Assembly: GCA_963829055.1 (NCBI GenBank)
Contig: CAWHHI010000004.1
Coordinates: 704,001-768,000 of the forward strand
Direction: 5' to 3'
DNA from: an uncultured Gemmatimonadaceae bacterium
Lineage (GTDB): Bacteria; Gemmatimonadota; Gemmatimonadetes; Gemmatimonadales; Gemmatimonadaceae
Length of the DNA stretch: 64,000 nucleotides
The notes beneath the pieces are model-generated. The model was given only the letters and a program-made list of their open reading frames with translations. It did not search any database and was not told the origin of the DNA. A program made the position numbers and the translations under genes. Positions 1 to 57,541 of this stretch are shown one piece after another. Within the stretch, counting starts at the first letter, position 1. Every line of letters begins with the position of its first letter.

Positions 1-589
1 CCGGCGGTGGCGGCTCCGGGTACAGGCACCGGTAGCACGGGCCGTCCTCTGTCGCGAATACGGAGGCCTGACCGTCGAATCGAAAGATGCTGCCGTAGAC
101 GTTAGGCTTCCCGAGCAACACGCAGGCGTCGTTCACCAGATACCGCGTTGCGAAGTTGTCGGTGCCGTCGAGCACGAGGTCGTACTCGCGCACGATCGTG
201 AGGGCGTTCGCCGCGGTGAGTCGCGTGGCGTGCAACTCGAGCTTCACGTTGGGATTCGCGTCGTGCAGCCGATCTCGCGCCGCGTCGAGCTTCGAGCGTC
301 CGACATCCCCAGTGCCGTACAGGAGCTGACGCTGGAGATTCGTAACCTCGACGATATCGAAGTCGACGAGACCGATGGTTCCGACGCCGGCCGCCGCGAG
401 GTACAGCGCGGCTGGTGAACCGAGCCCTCCGGCGCCAACGATCAGTACGCGCGCAGCCTTGAGTTTTCGCTGGCCATCGATGGCGACTTCGGGAAGCAGC
501 AGATGCCGGCCGTAGCGCAGCAACTCCTCGCGCTCGAGTGCGGGCGCGGTGCGGGACCGAATCAGGGGATTGTCGAGTGTCGCAGTCAT
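1..589 (-). CDS. moeB: MoeB/ThiF/MoeZ-family sulfur-carrier adenylyltransferase (3' end runs off the window)
   Basis: Not in the ORF track because it is open at the edge. Hand translation from ATG 589 gives RYGRHLLLPEV...RVLIVGAGGLGSPAALYLAAAGVGTIGLVDFDIVEVTNLQRQ...DGTDNFATRYLVNDAC...GPCYRCLYPEPPP, the canonical E1-like motifs. Confidence 0.95.
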   Translation of the reverse strand, partial: MTATLDNPLIRSRTAPALEREELLRYGRHLLLPEVAIDGQRKLKAARVLIVGAGGLGSPAALYLAAAGVGTIGLVDFDIVEVTNLQRQLLYGTGDVGRSKLDAARDRLHDANPNVKLELHATRLTAANALTIVREYDLVLDGTDNFATRYLVNDACVLLGKPNVYGSIFRFDGQASVFATEDGPCYRCLYPEPPPP

Positions 590-591
590 TC

Positions 592-867
592 TCAGCCTCC
601 AGCGACGGCAGAAACGATGATGAGCTCATCGCCATCGGTTACCGTCGCCTGGAATCCTCCGCCGAAGCGGATGTCTTCGTCGTTGAGATAGTAGGTGACG
701 AAGGGATAGGGCTCGCCACGATCATCGACGAGTCGCGGGGATAGTGACGGGAAGCGACGCGTGAGGTCGGCGACGGCTTCTCCGACGGTGGCGCCCGACG
801 CTTGAAGGGCGCGCTGGCCGTCGGTGAGGCGGGAGAGAACGCTCGGAAGAGAGATCGTCAGAGACAT
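592..867 (-). CDS. MoaD/ThiS/CysO-like ubiquitin-fold sulfur carrier protein
   Basis: 91 aa with YLNDEDIRF motif and C-terminal AVAGG (Gly-Gly); lies directly upstream of moeB. Confidence 0.93.
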   Translation of the reverse strand: MSLTISLPSVLSRLTDGQRALQASGATVGEAVADLTRRFPSLSPRLVDDRGEPYPFVTYYLNDEDIRFGGGFQATVTDGDELIIVSAVAGG

Positions 868-874
868 AGAAAGG

Positions 875-957
875 CGCTGGGTGCTGGGTGGTCTTGCCGG
901 TGCTGGGTGGTCGTGCTGGTGGCTGGGTGTGGCTACGTGCGAGCGTGCTGCGTGCTG
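875..957 (+). repeat. Intergenic GCTGG(G)T-rich repeat; copy of a dispersed element
   Basis: 902-929 GCTGGGTGGTCGTGCTGGTGGCTGGGTG differs by 1 base from 44462-44489. Confidence 0.85.
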
Positions 958-963
958 ACAGGC

Positions 964-2242
964 TTATGCCTGGTTGACCAACGCGGCGACCGCACTCAGG
1001 CGCGGCGCGATCACCGGAGCGGGTGGAAGTGCATCGGCTACCGCGTCGAGTGTCTTCAGGCCGTTTCCCGTTATGCAGAGCACGACCTCGTCATCAGGAC
1101 GCAGGCGCCCAACGCTCGCGAGCTGCTTCGCGGCGGCGACGGTGACACCACCCGCGGTTTCGGCGAAGATGCCCGTGGTCTCGGCGAGCAAGCGTATTCC
1201 GGCGACGAGCTCCGCATCGGAAACCGCGGCCGCCCAGCCATTCGTCTCCGCGATACCGCGGGCCGCGGTGAGGCCGTCCGCAGGGTTGCCGATCGCGAGC
1301 GAACGCGCGATGGTCGAAGGGATCTCCGGCTCGATGCGCCCACTGCCTCGCTCCACGAGCCTAACGATCGGTGCACAGCCGGTTGCCTGAGCGCCGTGCA
1401 GCCGCGGCAGCGGGCCAGTGAAGAGCCCTGCCTCGGAGAATTCCCGAAAGCCACGATGGAGCTTGGTGACCAACGCACCACCGGCCATCGGGGCAACTAC
1501 GGCCGTCGGCGCGCGCCACCCAAGCTGCTCGATGATCTCGAATGCCATCGTCTTCGAGCCTTCGCCGTAGTACGCGCGAAGATTCACGTTGACGAGCCCC
1601 CAGCCGAAGCTGTCGGCTACCTGTGCGCACAGTCTGTTCACGTCGTCGTAGGTGCCGCGAACGCGCACGAGCTTCGGTGCGAACACGCTCGTGCCGAAGA
1701 CCTTTGCAGGCTCGAGATCGTGCGGAATGAAGATCCACGCCTCGAGTCCAGCGCGCGCCGCGTGTGCGGCGACGGCATTGGCGAGGTTCCCGGTAGACGC
1801 ACAGCCGATGACACCGAGCCCGAACGCGTGGGCCGCGTTGATCGCGGTCGATACGACACGGTCCTTGAACGACAACGTCGGGATGTGAGACGGCGTCGTT
1901 CTTCACCCACACGCGTGCGACACCGAGCCTTCGCGCGAGCTCGGGCGCTTCCACCAGCGGCGTGAACCCGGAGTCCAGCGACAGCGATGGCGTCCCGGTG
2001 AACGGGAGCCACTCGCGGTATCGCCAGAGCGATGGCGCGCGGCGCGCGATCTCCTCCCGGCCCGGAAGTGTTCTCGTCGCATCATATTCGGGTACGAGTG
2101 GCCCAAGACACTGCAGGCAGATCGCGCTCGGCTCCGCGTCGAAACGGCTTTCGCAATTGGAGCAGACGAGTGGAAGGGCAGTGCATGCAGACTGAGGACG
2201 GCGCGTGGACGACTCGACGCCATCGAGAACGGTGGCAGACAT
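964..2242 (-). CDS. thrC: Threonine synthase-like PLP enzyme (fold type II) with N-terminal Zn ribbon; one frameshift near 1881
   Basis: ORF 1361..2242 gives the N-terminus (CSNC...CLQC, SLWRYREWLP, GFTPLVEA, VWVKNDAVSHP). ORF 964..1875 continues SFKDR, CASTGNLANAVAA, NVNLRAYYGEGSKT, ITGNGLKT. Removing one C from a CCC run restores HPTLSFKDR. Confidence 0.9.
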
Positions 2243-3237
2243 CAGGCGACTCCTGCGTAGGCTGTGGTTAACGCGCGCGTCGAGTACACACGTGCGGCGG
2301 CGATCGTATCAGCGAGAAGAGCGGACGCGGTCGAGCGCCCGCCTGCGCCCGCGCCGTGCCATGTGAGAGTGCCCGCGAGTGCCGCTCGCACCTCGACGAC
2401 GTTGTGCACGCCGGTGCCCGTCGCGAGCGCGTCGCCAGCGTCGAGCACTGTGGGTTCGACCGATGCGTGTATCTGCCCGTTGCGTTCGGCCGTTGCGACC
2501 AGTCGGACGCGCCCGCCTCGACACCGGGCGGCGTCGACGGTCTCGGCGAGTGATGCGTCGATCCCACGCACCCTAACGCGGTCGAGCGTCACCGGTTCCT
2601 TCCAGGCAATCGAGCAGAGGATCGCGAGCTTCGCGGCGGCGTCTGCGCCACTGAGATCGTCGGTTGGATCGCGTTCGGCGAATCCTGCTCGCTGTGCGTC
2701 GCTCACCGCCTCGGCGAACTGACGGCGCTGCTCCAGCTGCCCAATGACGAACGTGGTGGTGCCGTTCAACACCCCGCGCAGGCCGTGAATCTCCTCGCCG
2801 GCGAGTGATTCACGGAGCGCGCGGACGATCGGCACGGCTGCAGCAACGGCACCCTCGCAGTGCAGGCGAGAGCCGGGGTCAGCGAGCGTCGCGAGCAGAT
2901 ACGGATCGCGCGCGAGCGCCTGCTTGTTCGCGGTGACCACCGCGGCGCCTCGGTCCAGGGCGGTGCGGATCCAGTGCGCGGCGTTAGGTGCACCGCTGGC
3001 CTCGATGACGATGTCGATCGACGGATCGGCGGCGATCGCGGCGGCGTCGTCGGTGAGCGCACCCAGTGCCTGCCGAGGATGACGCAAGTGGGGCCTGAGC
3101 ACGGCGATACGCGCGAGCCGCAATCGCGAACTCGTCAGGCGCTCCAGGGATGTGCGTCGTTCGGCGAACGACGAAGCGAACGCGGTGCCAACGGTGCCGC
3201 AGCCGATGAGACCGAGGCGCAACTCGACGGGTGACAC
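2242..3237 (-). CDS. hom: Homoserine dehydrogenase, short form without ACT domain
   Basis: GLIGCGTVG, VVTANK, EGAVAAAVP, GVLNGTT, GFAERDPTDDLSGADAAAKLAIL, GAGAGG. GTG at 3237 is preceded by a GGAAGGAG Shine-Dalgarno. Confidence 0.92.
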   Translation of the reverse strand: MSPVELRLGLIGCGTVGTAFASSFAERRTSLERLTSSRLRLARIAVLRPHLRHPRQALGALTDDAAAIAADPSIDIVIEASGAPNAAHWIRTALDRGAAVVTANKQALARDPYLLATLADPGSRLHCEGAVAAAVPIVRALRESLAGEEIHGLRGVLNGTTTFVIGQLEQRRQFAEAVSDAQRAGFAERDPTDDLSGADAAAKLAILCSIAWKEPVTLDRVRVRGIDASLAETVDAARCRGGRVRLVATAERNGQIHASVEPTVLDAGDALATGTGVHNVVEVRAALAGTLTWHGAGAGGRSTASALLADTIAAARVYSTRALTTAYAGVA

Positions 3238-3283
3238 AGTGGTTCTTCTCCTTCCACCCGTCTCCACCGCGTCGCCCGGAGAC

Positions 3284-3316
3284 AAAAAATCCCCGAGGCG
3301 AGAAAAGCCGCGGGGA
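3284..3316 (-). terminator. Intrinsic terminator in the hom leader (riboswitch expression platform)
   Basis: Minus strand TCCCCGCGGC-TTTTCTC-GCCTCGGGGA followed by TTTTTT, between the aptamer and the RBS. Confidence 0.85.
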
Positions 3317-3321
3317 CGCGT

Positions 3322-3375
3322 GGCCTTTTAGCTGTTTGTTTAACGTGGCCGCAATACGCCGTAAATCACCACGAG
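3322..3375 (-). ncRNA. SAM-II (SAM_alpha-type) riboswitch aptamer
   Basis: Minus strand CTCGTGGTGATTTACGGCGTATTGCGGCCACGTTAAACAAACAGCTAAAAGGCC matches the SAM-II pattern: CGUGG/CCACG P1 stem, UGAUUU, UUGC, A-rich linker, GCUAAA. It sits upstream of homoserine dehydrogenase. Confidence 0.88.
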
Positions 3376-3445
3376 TGAACTTCGATTGTGCTCGAATTAC
3401 TAAATGGGGCCGTGCGCAATTGCAAGGGCCAGCAAGAACAACTGG

Positions 3446-3560
3446 TAGCTGGTCGCTCGTGCTGGTCGCTGGTCGGAAGCGGACTGGGATGCCTGTTCGT
3501 GGCGTCACTCGGGGTCTTGCTCTCGACCAGCAACCAGCACGCAGCACCCAGCGACCAGCT
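3446..3560. repeat. Inverted arrangement of GCTGGTC-type heptamer repeats (long imperfect hairpin)
   Basis: Left arm AGCTGGTCGCTCGTGCTGGTCGCTGGTCG; right arm CGACCAGCAACCAGCACGCAGCACCCAGCGACCAGCT; immediately after the vWA gene stop. Confidence 0.75.
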
Positions 3561-3569
3561 CCTGCCGTT

Positions 3570-4850
3570 CTAACTGACGGTTTTGGTTTTTCTCCGCAGG
3601 AAATCCATCAGGATGAACTGGCCTAACGTCATCGTATTCGTGAAGTACGCCTTGCCCTTGCTGATCTCGGAGACACGCTTCACGAACTCCACCAGGGCGC
3701 GATCGCGGGCGAGCATGAACGTATTGATCATGATGCCCGACCGACGGCAGTTCGCGACTTCCTTGAGCGTCTCGGCGATGACCGTCGCATCGAGGCCCAT
3801 CGAGTTCTTGTAGATCTGCCCATTCGGCATCGTGAGCGCGCTCGGCTTCCCGTCCGTGATCATGACGATCTGCCGCATGTCCTTCTTCTGCGCGAGCAGA
3901 ATGCGGCGCGCCAGCTTCAGGCCTTCGGCCGTGTTCGTGTGATACGGGCCCACTTGCGCGTGCGCGAGCGTCGGCAGCGGAATCTCTTCGGCCGAGTCGT
4001 GAAAGAGCACGACGCGAATCGTGTCACCGGGAAACTGCGTGCGAATGAGGTGCGTGAGCGCGAGCGCGACTTTTTTGGCCGGTGTGAACCGGTCTTCTCC
4101 GTATAGGATCATGGAGTGCGATGTGTCGAGCATGAGCACCGTCGCGCATGACGACCGATACTCCGCCTGACGCACCATCAAGTCCGAATACTCGAGGTCT
4201 ATTGGAACGCCGATTGTCCCCGTTCGGGCGAGCGAATTCTTGAGCGTTTCGTTCACGTCCAGATTCAGGACGTCGCCGAACTCGTACACCTTGCTCCAGC
4301 CGTCGGACTCGATGCCGGTGGCGAGGTACGGCGTGTCGTGCGCACCAATGCTCGACTTGCCGAGTGACCCGAGGAGGTTGCGTAAGGTTCGGTATCCGAG
4401 GAAGTCGATGCCCTTGTCAGTAAGATTGAACTGCACGTCACGCGACGCCGCGTGCGCCAGGCTTCCACGGCCTTCCAGGGGTTGATGTGTATCCGGAACC
4501 TGGGGCGGTGCGTCGATGTTCAGATAGCCCTCAGCGGTGAGGCGCTGCACGAGTTCGTCGAGGAGCTTGGCAAGTTTCGCCTGCGCCTCCTCGTCGCCAT
4601 CGCCGCGGAGCGCTTGCAGCATCTCGGGGGTGAACTGGCCACTCTCGATCAGCGCGTTGAGGATTGCCTCCTTGAGCGCATCGAGTGATCGGTCCGCTTC
4701 GCCTCCGAAGTCGCCCCAGTACGGGTGCGACATGCGTCCGCCGGCGAAACCAGACTGTAACAGGAAATCGGCCAGCTTTTCGAGGAGGGACTGCAGATCG
4801 ACCGCGTCCGCCAACTCGGGGCTGAACTTGGAGTAGGTGTGGAAGCGCAT
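3570..4850 (-). CDS. von Willebrand factor A (vWA) domain protein, likely partner of the AAA+ ATPase at 7514-8988
   Basis: MIDAS-like [21 protein letters not shown]; start MRFHTYSKF at 4850. Confidence 0.88.
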
Positions 4851-5004
4851 AGCAGCAGAGACGGGGGACTGGGGACGAGAGACGAGCTGGCACCGACTCG
4901 AGCACGAGCGGGCGAGCGCCGGTGGACTCGTCTCGATTCGCTGGTCGCCGTGTACCGAAACGTACTGCCGGGTCTCGGGACGCGCACGACCTATACTGCG
5001 CCGG

Positions 5005-6263
5005 ATGGCCACTCGAGTCCGACGACGCACGCGCCATCCTCCAAGTCGATCAACCCGTTTCGTGTGCTGCTCACGCACCGAAACTTCCGGCTGTTCTGGA
5101 TCGGACAGACGCTGTCGCTCATCGGCACGTGGATGCAGACGATGGCGCAGGGGTGGCTCGCGCTCGAGCTGACGAACAACGCGTTTCTGGTCGGGCTCGT
5201 CGCGTCGATCGGGTCACTCCCGATTCTCGTGCTCTCGCTACCGGCCGGCGTGCTGGCGGATCGCGAACACAAGCTCCGCCTGGTGACGATAGCGCAGTCG
5301 CTGCTATTGATCGAAGCAATCGTGCTCTGGTGGCTGACGTTCACGGGGCATGTCACGATCGGCTGGCTGCTCGCGCTCTCGGCGGCGAATGGGGCCATCA
5401 GCGCCATCGAGATTCCGGCGCGCCAGGCGATGATGATCGACCTGGTAGGTCGCGAGGACCTCCGAGACGCGATCGCGTTGAACTCCAGCGGGTTCAATCT
5501 CGCACGGATCTTCGGCCCCGCCGTAGCGGCGGTCGTGATCGCGAAGGCGGGGATCTCATGGTGCTTCGGCCTGAACGCGCTGAGCTATTTCACCGTGTTG
5601 CTCGGGCTTTCGCGCATCCGGCTGCCGGCGTGGCATCCGCCGCTCACGACCGGGTCGCCGTTACACGGTATGCTCGAAGGGCTGCGCTACGTTCGCGCGA
5701 CGAAGAAGGTCTCGACGCTCATCAAGTTCATCGCCGTGTTCTCGGTGCTCGGCGTGCCGTACATCACGCTCATGCCCGTTGTCGCACGCGATCTGCTCGG
5801 CCTCGATGCCAGCGGGTACGGGCTCCTGCTCTCGTCGCTTGGCCTCGGTGGGCTGAGCGGGGCCCTTGCTCTCGCGGCGGTCGGTGGGCGCATGCCGCGC
5901 GGCAAGCTGCTCGTGGCGTCGTCGTATACGTACGCCTTCCTGCTGATCATGTTCTCGCTCGTGCGCGTCTCGTGGATCGCCTACCCGATTCTGTTCGTCA
6001 CAGGGTTCAGCATGATCCTCACGAACGCGCTCGCGAACAGCATGTTGCAGTCGTTCGTCATCGATCGTTTCCGCGGACGACTGATGTCGGTCTACTCGCT
6101 CATCTCGGTAGGACTCTCGCAGGTCCTCGGCGCCTTCGCGGCGGGTGCGGTCGCGAGCGCGGTCGGTGTCGACTGGGCTATTGGCGGTGGGGCAGCCATC
6201 ATGCTCGCGTTCGCGATGTACGCCTTCCGTCGCGAGAGCAGCTGGATCGTGACGGAGCACTAG
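5005..6263 (+). CDS. MFS transporter (MFS_3/EntS-like); start uncertain, probably a 1-nt indel just after ATG 5005
   Basis: About 12 hydrophobic segments; HRNFRLFWIGQTLSLIGTWMQ, GVLADR, AIALNS, FRGRLMS. The ORF track extends it to 4839, but TATACT-N7-ATG at 4992-5005 suggests the true start. Confidence 0.88.
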
Positions 6264-55128: not shown

Positions 55129-56510
55129 GCGCGCGCCCTCCGGAACCGAGCCGCGAACGCACCATCGGTCGCATGCCGCTGGGGAAGCACGCGTAGGCGA
55201 CCCGCATCGAGCACGGCCGAGGGGACCGCGCCATCCGGCGGCGGCTCGAGGACCCACTCCGGGTGCTCGGCCAGGAAGCTTTCCACTTGCGCGTCGTTCT
55301 CCTCGGGCTCGAGCGAGCACGTGCTGTAGATCATGAGCCCACCCGGACGCACGACCGACGCCGCGGCACGGATGATCGCGCGCTGCATCGCGCCCATAAC
55401 GGCCAGGTCGGACACCTTGAGTCGCCACCGCGCATCGGGGTGGCGCCGGAATGTGCCGGTGCCCGTGCACGGCACGTCAATCAACACCGCATCCACTGGT
55501 GCCAACGCCGGCTCCCGCGCGTCGGCGGCGACGGCGTAGATGTTCTTCGCCTCGACGCGGCGCAGGTTACCGGCCATGCGCGTTAGGCGCGCGAACGAGC
55601 GATCCACGGCGACCACCGTCCCGGCGGTACGCGACAGCTCGAGCGCCTTCCCGCCGGGTGCCGCACAGAGGTCGGCGACGGTACTGCCCGGCTCGATCGC
55701 CGCATAACGAGTCACGAGCGTCGCGCCCGGGTCCTGCACGAAGAACAGTCCCTGGCGGTATGCGCCGAGCTCCGCGAGCGAGACGCTGCTGGTAATGCGG
55801 ATGCTGTCGCGAACGAGCGGCACGTCCTCGACGTGCACACCCGCACCTTCGAGCATCGCTTCCAGCTGCTCGCGCACGACGCCGAACGGCCGCAGGATGA
55901 TCGGCGCCTCGGCATTGTTCGCGGAGAGAAGCCGCTCGGTGTCCTCGGCGCCCCAGCGTGCGACCCACCGCGCGACGAGCCAGCGCGGATGCGAGTACGT
56001 GAGCGCGAGTGCGTCGATCGGGTCGGGACGCGGCGCGGCCGGCTCTGCGCGCGGAACGGGCGGGAAGGGAATCATCTCCCGCTCGCGATCCACGCGACGC
56101 AGCACCGCGTTCACCAGCTTGCTCGCACCGAGGCCGTGGCGTCGCTTCGCCAGCTCGACGGACTGCGCGATGGCAGCGTAGGGCGGCACGCTGCGCATGA
56201 ACAGCAGCTGATAGACGCCTAACCGGAGGATGTCGGTGAGGTCGGGATCGAGCCGCGCGAGCCCGCCGCGCACGCGCTCGGACAGCGCCGCGTCGAGCCA
56301 GGCGCGCCGGCGCAGCATCCCGTAGAGCAATTCCTGCGTCCACCTGCGGTCGCGCGCGTCGAGCGACTCGACGCGCCGCTCGAACGACGAGTCCAGCAAC
56401 TCGCCGGCACGCAGGTCGGCGCACACATCGGCGGCCGCGACGCGCGCGTCAGTGACGCCACCGCGAGCAGCGGTCGCGGATCCCGCGTGGTGCTCGGCGT
56501 CTTCGCTCAT
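55125..56510 (-). CDS. rsmB: 16S rRNA m5C967 methyltransferase
   Basis: NusB-like N-terminus, YSHP, VQD, DLCAAPGGK, DVPCTGTG, YSTCS. Confidence 0.94.
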   Translation of the reverse strand: MSEDAEHHAGSATAARGGVTDARVAAADVCADLRAGELLDSSFERRVESLDARDRRWTQELLYGMLRRRAWLDAALSERVRGGLARLDPDLTDILRLGVYQLLFMRSVPPYAAIAQSVELAKRRHGLGASKLVNAVLRRVDREREMIPFPPVPRAEPAAPRPDPIDALALTYSHPRWLVARWVARWGAEDTERLLSANNAEAPIILRPFGVVREQLEAMLEGAGVHVEDVPLVRDSIRITSSVSLAELGAYRQGLFFVQDPGATLVTRYAAIEPGSTVADLCAAPGGKALELSRTAGTVVAVDRSFARLTRMAGNLRRVEAKNIYAVAADAREPALAPVDAVLIDVPCTGTGTFRRHPDARWRLKVSDLAVMGAMQRAIIRAAASVVRPGGLMIYSTCSLEPEENDAQVESFLAEHPEWVLEPPPDGAVPSAVLDAGRLRVLPQRHATDGAFAARFRRARA

Positions 56511-57304
56511 CCGAGCATTCCCGCGATCGGTGAGGATGGCACCGCGATCTCACGTCGCGGCATACGGCCGGCGAGGTGTGCGAGCCGGCCCGCTTCGACC
56601 GCGAGTCGCATGGCCACCGCCATGCGCACCGGATCGCCGGCTGCCGCAATGCCCGTGTTCATCAGGATTCCGTCCACGCCCTGCTCCATCGTGATGCACG
56701 CGTCAGAGGCCGTACCAACACCGGCGTCGACGATCACCGGCACCGAGAGTCGATGCTTGATGGTGCGGATGGCGAAGGGATTCAGCAACCCGAGACCCGA
56801 GCCAATTGGCGAGGCCAACGGCATCACCGCGACGGCGCCGGCGTCCTCCAGCCGGAGCGCGGTGATCAGGTCGTCGTTCGTGTAGGCCATCACCTTGAAG
56901 CCGTCGGCTGCCAACACACGGGTCGCGTCCAGCAACCCCGCCGTGTCGGGAAGCAGACTCTCCTGGTCACCGATGACTTCGAGCTTCACCCACTCGTTGA
57001 ACCCAGCGGCCCGAGCGAGTCGGGCGTAGCGCACTGCGTCATCGGCGGAGTAGCAGCCGGCTGTGTTCGCGAGCAGGAAGTAGCGAGCCGGATCGAGGTG
57101 ATGCAGCACGCCCGCGTCCTTCGTGCGGTCGAGATCGACGCGCCGTACGGCCACGGTCACGACCTCGGCACCGGACGCCTCGATGGCCTGCACCATCACC
57201 GCGTTCGACGGATACTTCCCCGTGCCCACCATCAGACGCGACTGGAATTCGCGCTCGCCGACGATGAACGACGTATCGAGCGTCGGTTGGGTCGCCGTCG
57301 CCAT
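56507..57304 (-). CDS. thiG: Thiazole synthase
   Basis: SRLMVGTGKY, NTAGC, WVKLEV, MPLASPIGSG, VDAGVG. Confidence 0.96.
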   Translation of the reverse strand: MATATQPTLDTSFIVGEREFQSRLMVGTGKYPSNAVMVQAIEASGAEVVTVAVRRVDLDRTKDAGVLHHLDPARYFLLANTAGCYSADDAVRYARLARAAGFNEWVKLEVIGDQESLLPDTAGLLDATRVLAADGFKVMAYTNDDLITALRLEDAGAVAVMPLASPIGSGLGLLNPFAIRTIKHRLSVPVIVDAGVGTASDACITMEQGVDGILMNTGIAAAGDPVRMAVAMRLAVEAGRLAHLAGRMPRREIAVPSSPIAGMLG

Positions 57305-57307
57305 CGC

Positions 57308-57541
57308 TCAGCCTCCGCCCACGAAGTGCACGATCTCGATCGTGTCGCCGCCCGTGAGCTCAATGTGCCCATACGAGTCACGGTCGCGGAGAATCTCGCG
57401 ATTCCGCTCGACGACCACGAGCCGCGGGTCGAGCTCGAGCGATGTGAGCAGCGATGTGATCGTCGATCCCGCCGGGATGTCCCGCGAATCGCCGTTCACT
57501 GTGATCGCGACCGCGTCGCTACGGACCCCCAAATGCGCCAT
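57308..57541 (-). CDS. thiS: Thiamine biosynthesis sulfur carrier
   Basis: ITVNG, VVVERN, IEIVHFVGGG C-terminus; adjacent to thiG. Confidence 0.93.
   Translation of the reverse strand: MAHLGVRSDAVAITVNGDSRDIPAGSTITSLLTSLELDPRLVVVERNREILRDRDSYGHIELTGGDTIEIVHFVGGG

Follow-up and report, generated by a model that had tools for sequence, protein, structure and literature searches.

In Mycobacterium tuberculosis, cysteine is made by a route in which CysM, a cysteine-synthase-type enzyme, acts on O-phosphoserine and in which the peptidase Mec is needed for release of the product, and in Wolinella the HcyS/HcyF/HcyD/MetY route leads from O-acetylhomoserine to homocysteine with a protein thiocarboxylate, MetY and a JAMM peptidase. 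For MetM, the enzyme of a route known from Streptomyces albulus, work by Hasebe and colleagues in 2024 is said to show that free homocysteine is the direct product. We compare these systems with an operon at the start of a 64,000-nucleotide stretch of DNA (the window) from an uncultured Gemmatimonadaceae bacterium (GenBank assembly GCA_963829055.1, contig CAWHHI010000004.1, positions 704,001 to 768,000), in which a class II S-adenosylmethionine (SAM-II) riboswitch aptamer leads genes for a homoserine dehydrogenase (hom), a threonine-synthase-like (ThrC-like) enzyme dependent on pyridoxal 5′-phosphate (PLP), a sulfur carrier and MoeZ. Judged by its sequence, this operon would most probably make homocysteine by the MetM/MetO route.

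The MetM/MetO route from O-phospho-L-homoserine in S. albulus (Hasebe et al. 2024, 10.1128/aem.01247-24) is cited in three sources, which, like all works cited below, are represented here by extracts (10.1101/2024.10.14.618325; PMC12172450; 10.64898/2026.09.15.751699). The extract of the GapMind 2026 preprint gives this thiocarboxylate route as MetO, Mec (for MetO maturation only), MoeZ and MetM, and remarks that annotations often mistake MetM for threonine synthase; S. albulus metM is preceded by a SAM riboswitch, and a Microcystis homolog, 51.6% identical and lacking that switch, has a metO-like gene as its neighbor (PMC12172450). The Streptomyces route named in the original prediction is real according to both of these sources. 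Our literature searches found no paper on Gemmatimonadota methionine biosynthesis with metM, nothing on this operon among the matches listed for SAM-II, Gemmatimonad, hom and thrC, and no paper for the Wolinella HcyS route.

The operon resembles the MetM/MetO system of S. albulus in having a ThrC-homologous PLP enzyme with a carrier directly downstream, a SAM riboswitch, MoeZ and a separate true thrC, and it differs in that the switch is SAM-II and not SAM-I, moeZ and an ACT-less hom lie inside the operon, the carrier ends in a free GG, no Mec was found and the host belongs to the Gemmatimonadota. It is likely a new copy of the published pathway, to which a dedicated homoserine dehydrogenase is added in this case. 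With the CysM/CysO/MoeZ/Mec system of M. tuberculosis it shares a CysO-type carrier, a rhodanese MoeZ and a PLP enzyme taking thiocarboxylate sulfur, but the enzyme here is of the ThrC type and is accompanied by hom and SAM control. Homocysteine by way of a protein thiocarboxylate is common to the Wolinella HcyS route, whose O-acetylhomoserine, MetY and JAMM peptidase have no counterpart in this operon. The lineage, the dedicated hom and the SAM-II control had all been thought new, a claim that is weaker than it seemed, since SAM-II control of hom is already in print: hom is among the SAM_alpha targets described in PMC4239095, and in the hom-metXC operons of Hyphomonadaceae in the same source a SAM-II switch leads a methionine-dedicated hom, with MetX acylation and not MetM/MetO downstream.

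Operon layout and gene products

All five elements of the operon (aptamer, hom, ThrC-like enzyme gene, carrier gene and moeZ) are co-directional on the minus strand, and Rfam, domain and open reading frame evidence bears out the earlier description of four such genes behind a SAM-II aptamer. The window opens inside the operon, so that moeZ is cut by its left edge, and the ATG of the enzyme gene overlaps the hom stop codon (TGATG at 2244-2240). The features are:

3308..3382, minus strand: SAM-II (SAM_alpha) riboswitch aptamer, RF00521, with a core from P1 to P2a at about 3373-3322
3284..3316, minus strand: GC-rich hairpin with a run of six U behind it, which would be the intrinsic terminator of the expression platform (terminator scan, leader folds)
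2242..3237, minus strand: hom, ACT-less homoserine dehydrogenase of 331 aa with a presumed GTG start (PF00742, PF03447)
964..2242, minus strand: MetM-type ThrC-like PLP enzyme of about 425 aa, frameshifted in the assembly (PALP fold, TIGR00260)
1879..1888, minus strand: extra base in a C run of the enzyme gene (one base fewer in contigs of four public runs)
592..867, minus strand: MetO/CysO-type ubiquitin-fold sulfur carrier of 91 aa with an exposed C-terminal GG (PF02597)
1..589, minus strand: 5′ part of moeZ (E1/ThiF plus rhodanese; 394 aa; 595 bases more lie left of the window; PF00899, PF00581)

SAM_alpha is matched at 3382-3308 with 50.3 bits (gathering score 36; E = 2.5e-8), and the window has no other Rfam match. 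The P1, P2b and P2a pairings are kept, with 207 of 208 cells paired (13 pairs by 16 leaders), and one pair shows a two-sided change, in 4 sequences; 11 of the 13 pairs never vary, so that covariation support is thin. A terminator-like match was found at 3304-3290 in a scan that returned 4 such matches against 2.0 ± 1.6 in shuffled sequences, a weak signal when taken alone, and a hairpin with at least 5 U within the next 9 bases is present in 10 of 16 leader folds; the leader of the window preferred a different stem. No antiterminator was established from leader folding (fold z = -2.0), and the scan that gave the terminator-like match found no sigma-70-like promoter. By score and pairing, the leader is likely a SAM-II riboswitch, for which SAM binding and switching are predicted.

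The hom product matches Homoserine_dh (PF00742, 168 bits), NAD_binding_3 (PF03447) and PRK06349 (286.9 bits), and the domain search gave no match to an ACT domain in it. Over its whole length it can be aligned to the catalytic portion of 4pg4 (E = 7e-50), with GxGxxG, TANK, NGT and E.DP.DD..G.DAA.K all kept. A third, divergent ACT-less gene of the homoserine dehydrogenase family lies outside amino-acid operons (C4:395140-396564 of the source genome), and matches similar to it occur in all 6 same-genus genomes.

The ThrC-like enzyme has a PALP fold, a catalytic lysine in SFKDR and an N-terminal CxxC...CxxC; the Zn ribbon described earlier is thus present, but it is not diagnostic, since the ordinary thrC of the same genome has one too. 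On the C-terminal piece of the enzyme, TIGR00260 (thrC) gives 214 bits, above its cut-off of 167.1, although MetM and ThrC are not told apart by this model, and the cysteate synthase model reaches 56 of 325 bits. The ThrC motifs N-S-x-N-P-x-R(-x-E-G-Q-K-T) and GNxGN, which we take to be phosphate-site residues in ThrC, are replaced by NVNLRxYY and AGG, in versions common to the window enzyme and the Streptomyces and Microcystis genes. Compared with ThrC (TIGR00260; PDB 2zsj, 1uim, 6cgq, 2d1f), the fold and the SFKDR lysine motif are shared, and likely the substrate as well, but identity is 30-38%, the substrate-site motifs are different, the enzyme falls on the other side of our tree and neither carrier nor riboswitch lies beside the 10 control loci described below. 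A PDB search surfaced no MetM structure.

The enzyme gene carries a +1 frameshift: near 1880-1883, immediately ahead of the PTLSFKDR motif, it has one base too many. In contigs from 4 of 4 public runs, which come from different studies, 1879-1888 is shorter by one base (one of these contigs, of 1098 bases, spans 1543-2641 with 3 other differences from the window), and the orthologous gene is uninterrupted in 15 of 15 relatives. Because these four runs lack the base and the relatives are intact, the frameshift is probably an assembly error that is not in the living gene. The assembly is also rich in indels elsewhere, with metH in many pieces, a split moeB paralog and frame changes in 4 of 5 rows of the pan region. 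Contigs of an RNA run (X17) cover hom and the enzyme gene, although contigs cannot demonstrate transcription.

The carrier ends in AVAGG and belongs to the ThiS family (PF02597, 39 bits), and its closest solved relatives are of the CysO type (3dwg_C, the best, at E = 8e-21, and 4n6e_B at E = 4e-20). What had been called MoeB does have the E1 part (PF00899, 278 bits), but a rhodanese domain (PF00581, 66 bits; loop CKGGTRS) makes the protein MoeZ-type and not a plain MoeB; against PRK07878 it scores 503 bits, under the cut-off of 647. Three ThiS-family carriers are found in the genome in three contexts, namely beside thiG, beside moaA and in this operon. Because thiS-thiG and moaD-moaA exist separately, we reject a carrier for thiamine or molybdopterin, which for thiamine is what had been argued from the thiS-thiG pair of the window, confirmed at 57523-56507. 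For the sulfur donor, the SufS model gave 17 matches across the genome, all below its cut-off.

The wider family, the source genome and its relatives

Scanning GTDB genomes for the motif NxNxRxYYxEGSKT gave at least 120 stretches, of which 80 were listed and used; those listed include actinobacteria, cyanobacteria, Acidobacteriota, Chloroflexota, archaea and others. A carrier lies within 3 kb at 72 of these 80 loci. Among 10 loci of the ThrC family that lack the motif the count is 0, with flanks of only 1.5 kb covered at 8 of them. Among 20 hand-picked loci, an Rfam scan identified 14 with SAM-I (including 7 of 7 from Streptomyces) and 2 with SAM-II, and two cyanobacterial loci had neither. 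In three archaeal loci (L070, L094, L132), the MetM-type gene is followed by a single open frame that holds both a carrier domain and the E1 domain.

A quick maximum-likelihood tree of 103 proteins, made after 7 duplicate or fragment rows were dropped, places the window enzyme among rows labelled Gemmatimonadales within 93 motif-type rows, which include the SAM-I-led Streptomyces genes and stand apart from the 10 controls (Shimodaira-Hasegawa-like approximate likelihood ratio test, SH-aLRT, 99). Identity is 46-47% to 7 SAM-I-led Streptomyces genes and 49% to the Microcystis gene, against 37% to a Streptomyces hom-linked ThrC and 30% to the ordinary thrC of the source genome. With Streptomyces genes as proxies for MetM, the phylogeny therefore groups the enzyme with MetM-type proteins, as predicted; it lies outside the ThrC clade and lacks the ThrC motifs, while passing the thrC score.

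The source genome is of 7.8 Mb and 86% complete, a figure that limits every absence reported for it here. It holds the second thrC expected under the original prediction, in a separate thrA-thrB-thrC operon on contig C16 that has no riboswitch match. Its ThrC-family genes are the operon enzyme, the C16 thrC and a third of the PRK08197 type (C16:573949-575118), which sits between uvrC and a LarC-like gene; most relatives apparently have it too, even some in which neither thrB nor hom was matched. MetA was not found, and the only MetX-family match above 30 bits, at C4:13080, was rejected as MetX since it is a PRK06489 protein with an apparent signal peptide.

Two further SAM-II matches in the genome lead metH and an operon with SsuE-, RimK- and SfnG-like genes, and neither a SAM-I riboswitch nor a sulfite reductase domain was found. 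The metH locus (C4:611300-616018), in which a homocysteine methyltransferase/MTHFR-like gene comes after metH, is heavily frameshifted in the assembly. At C11:129887-132794, the switch precedes genes for an SsuE/MsuE-like flavin mononucleotide reductase, a RimK-like ATP-grasp protein and an SfnG-like monooxygenase; by its gene families, this operon would serve organosulfur scavenging under SAM control. As for Mec (JAMM), which GapMind lists in the four-step S. albulus pathway, none was found in this genome, and a JAB match at C16:215453 (23.6 bits) was rejected as Mec because it is RadC-like by sequence and place.

We sampled 40 relatives (the unpublished genome G013 is counted in these denominators and supplies one row of the PanB tree below, but none of our conclusions rests on it), which together with the source genome gave 16 genomes with the operon and 25 without; these genomes are kin and not independent, and the counts are descriptions, not tests. 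An ortholog of the enzyme is present in 15 of the 40 relatives, with 69-89% identity over the C-terminal part, and in all 15 operons SAM-II lies upstream and a carrier downstream, with moeZ next in 13 (of the two without it, one is cut off by the end of its contig). The first position holds an ACT-less hom in 8 (all 6 same-genus genomes plus 2), a PanB-like gene in 3 and nothing in 4, and thrB is inside the operon in 2. ThrB occurs in 15 of 16 operon genomes versus 10 of 25 others. MetX of at least 280 bits occurs in 1 of 16 versus 3 of 25, and no genome, controls included, reaches the model cut-off, so that mutual exclusivity of MetM and MetX is weak.

In 15 of the 16 operon genomes, five of them 96-100% complete, the search for Mec-like genes found none. 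The strong Mec-like match of the remaining operon genome (G033) belongs to a cysM-mec-cysO/moeZ cluster apart from the operon, and no conserved peptidase gene was seen in the 15 orthologous operons. In the G033 cluster (L253:4522-7296), the carrier is apparently in one frame with MoeZ, and the MetM operon of that genome has no moeZ of its own.

Several features of the window and its flank lie outside the operon genes. Intergenic GCTGG-rich repeats resembling repetitive extragenic palindromes occur at 868-963 and 3430-3570, with 80 and 52 short BLAST matches in the genome; two of their 10-mers occur 110 and 80 times, and depth spikes are seen at the repeats when public-run contigs are mapped. 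Left of the window, directly after moeZ, is a gene for a membrane protein with weak NicO/DsbD_2 scores only (L001:12701-13396), and a similar gene follows moeZ in L056, though not in the same-genus loci seen. The thiS-thiG pair of the window (56507-57523) has a ThiE-like gene upstream and fmt and an rsmB-like gene adjoining, an ordinary arrangement.

Proposed route and its alternatives

From the genes observed, their order, families and co-occurrence, we infer the following catalytic and regulatory steps. Hom, as its family suggests, would reduce aspartate semialdehyde to homoserine, and without an ACT domain it may escape threonine feedback, in a role like that of MetL in Escherichia coli. 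ThrB of the separate thrABC operon would phosphorylate homoserine in trans; the homoserine kinase and JAMM peptidase sought left of the window were not found there, nor elsewhere in the neighborhood of the operon. By analogy with CysO/MoeZ, MoeZ would adenylate the GG end of the carrier and convert it, through the rhodanese persulfide, to a thiocarboxylate. The MetM-type enzyme is predicted to use PLP-dependent gamma-elimination/replacement to swap the phosphate of O-phosphohomoserine for the thiocarboxylate sulfur, and homocysteine may then be released without a JAMM peptidase, as the absence of Mec suggests. We treat Mec as accessory and not as defining the MetM/MetO pair, because the carrier has no extension to remove. 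MetH, behind the second SAM-II switch, would methylate homocysteine to methionine, and SAM binding is predicted to favor the terminator and shut the operon off.

The prediction that this "thrC" is mis-annotated and makes homocysteine with a thiocarboxylated carrier fits the separate thrABC operon, the lack of a detected MetA and the SAM-II methionine/sulfur regulon, and also the clade with SAM-I-led Streptomyces genes and the carrier adjoining in 15 of 15 orthologs. Its further claim, that homocysteine is built on the carrier and needs a JAMM peptidase, is not supported by the operon genomes, in which a Mec-like gene was almost never found.

A number of observations weigh against the proposed route. 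The expected absence of canonical methionine genes stands for MetA and a convincing MetX, but not for the Cys/Met-metabolism PLP family, of which the genome has four loci, two scoring 500 and 467 bits with the cystathionine gamma-synthase model (cut-off 513); none of the four passes a curated cut-off as a single piece, and none has a SAM switch among the riboswitch matches. MetX-family genes of 149-155 bits occur in three same-genus genomes, and G031 has the operon and a 280-bit MetX with no ThrB match. The enzyme gene is broken in this assembly. In the tree, the ingroup was picked by a motif and the columns of that motif were kept, the search was quick and there were long-branch warnings on the outgroup, and the MetM proxies are SAM-I-led, carrier-flanked Streptomyces genes and not S. 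albulus MetM itself. For the Microcystis homolog, threonine synthase activity in vitro and an incomplete function as MetM are described (PMC12172450).

This last result also favors a reading of the enzyme as a second or bifunctional threonine synthase in a hom-thrC threonine module, with the carrier and MoeZ serving another sulfur pathway, as do the passing thrC score, the placement of hom beside thrC that is the usual threonine layout (L183, L184) and two 99% complete genomes (G027, G029) in which the operon enzyme and a weak PRK08197-like match were the only ThrC-family genes found. We give this reading little credence, since SAM-II precedes all 15 orthologs, the source genome has its separate thrABC, and the carrier association of the motif loci and the replaced ThrC-type motifs also speak against it. 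A role in making cysteine or another sulfur metabolite, by CysO/CysM-like or cysteate-synthase-like chemistry, would account for the CysO-type carrier and MoeZ, and one SAM-II does lead an organosulfur operon, but the ThrC-type enzyme, its low score with the cysteate synthase model and a hom that points to a homoserine substrate make it extremely unlikely.

Two other explanations concern the product or the state of the gene. Homocysteine could be amide-linked to the carrier after an S-to-N shift, as in CysO-Cys, and released by a peptidase other than JAMM/Mec: the carrier is closest to CysO, and with a Mec-like gene found in only 1 of 16 operon genomes an unknown enzyme would have to cut any amide. 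The role that the GapMind extract gives Mec is in MetO maturation only, the carriers end in a free GG, the 15 operons show no conserved peptidase and the Mec of G033 belongs to its separate cluster, and we regard such a linkage as improbable. The frameshift could likewise be real, the operon being a recent pseudogene in a strain that takes methionine from outside, and the enzyme gene is indeed the only one frameshifted among 15 rows tested in the surrounding 15 kb of contig C4; the missing base in contigs of all four runs and the indels elsewhere in the assembly make this very improbable. The MetM/MetO route thus remains our preferred reading of the operon.

The first operon position and what the operon may mean

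In five related operons (those of G007, G027 and G029 and of the genomes of L111 and L129), a PanB-like gene that overlaps or abuts the enzyme start takes the position of hom behind SAM-II:

L054:5644-6522: PanB paralog
L057:7889-8788: PanB paralog
L059, about 4950-5950: PanB paralog
L111:3665-4564: PanB paralog
L129:1466-2341: PanB paralog

In a FastTree of 37 PanB rows, a branch with support 99 places these five together on one side, apart from ordinary panB, and ordinary panB is also present in the 3 genomes checked (G007, G027, G029). In 4 of the 5 genomes, namely G027 and G029 (99% complete) and the small genomes of L111 and L129, the search for homoserine dehydrogenase domains gave no match. 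The pattern is weakened by G007, which has both the paralog and a homoserine dehydrogenase, and by G023, which has neither hom nor paralog. Tentatively, the first slot may be one for homoserine supply, filled in Gemmatimonadota by an ACT-less Hom or by a dedicated PanB paralog that would hydroxymethylate pyruvate to 4-hydroxy-2-oxobutanoate, from which a transaminase would give homoserine. The reactions from pyruvate and formaldehyde through 4-hydroxy-2-oxobutanoate to homoserine are described as a synthetic route, with partial rescue by Pseudomonas putida panB, in the extract of 10.1101/2025.02.17.638773.

If this possibility is true, the PanB route would be a natural version of a synthetic-biology pathway, feeding a Mec-free MetM without aspartate semialdehyde, and the alternation of hom and PanB paralog in one slot makes a natural homoserine route from pyruvate and a one-carbon unit directly testable. 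The operon itself, if it works as we propose, would account for methionine synthesis in a lineage of soil and rhizosphere with no MetA or clear MetX found, and would correct a gene modelled as threonine synthase. With its own Hom, its own MoeZ, an unmasked carrier and no Mec, it may be a compact, minimal and convenient system in which to study the release of homocysteine from the carrier.

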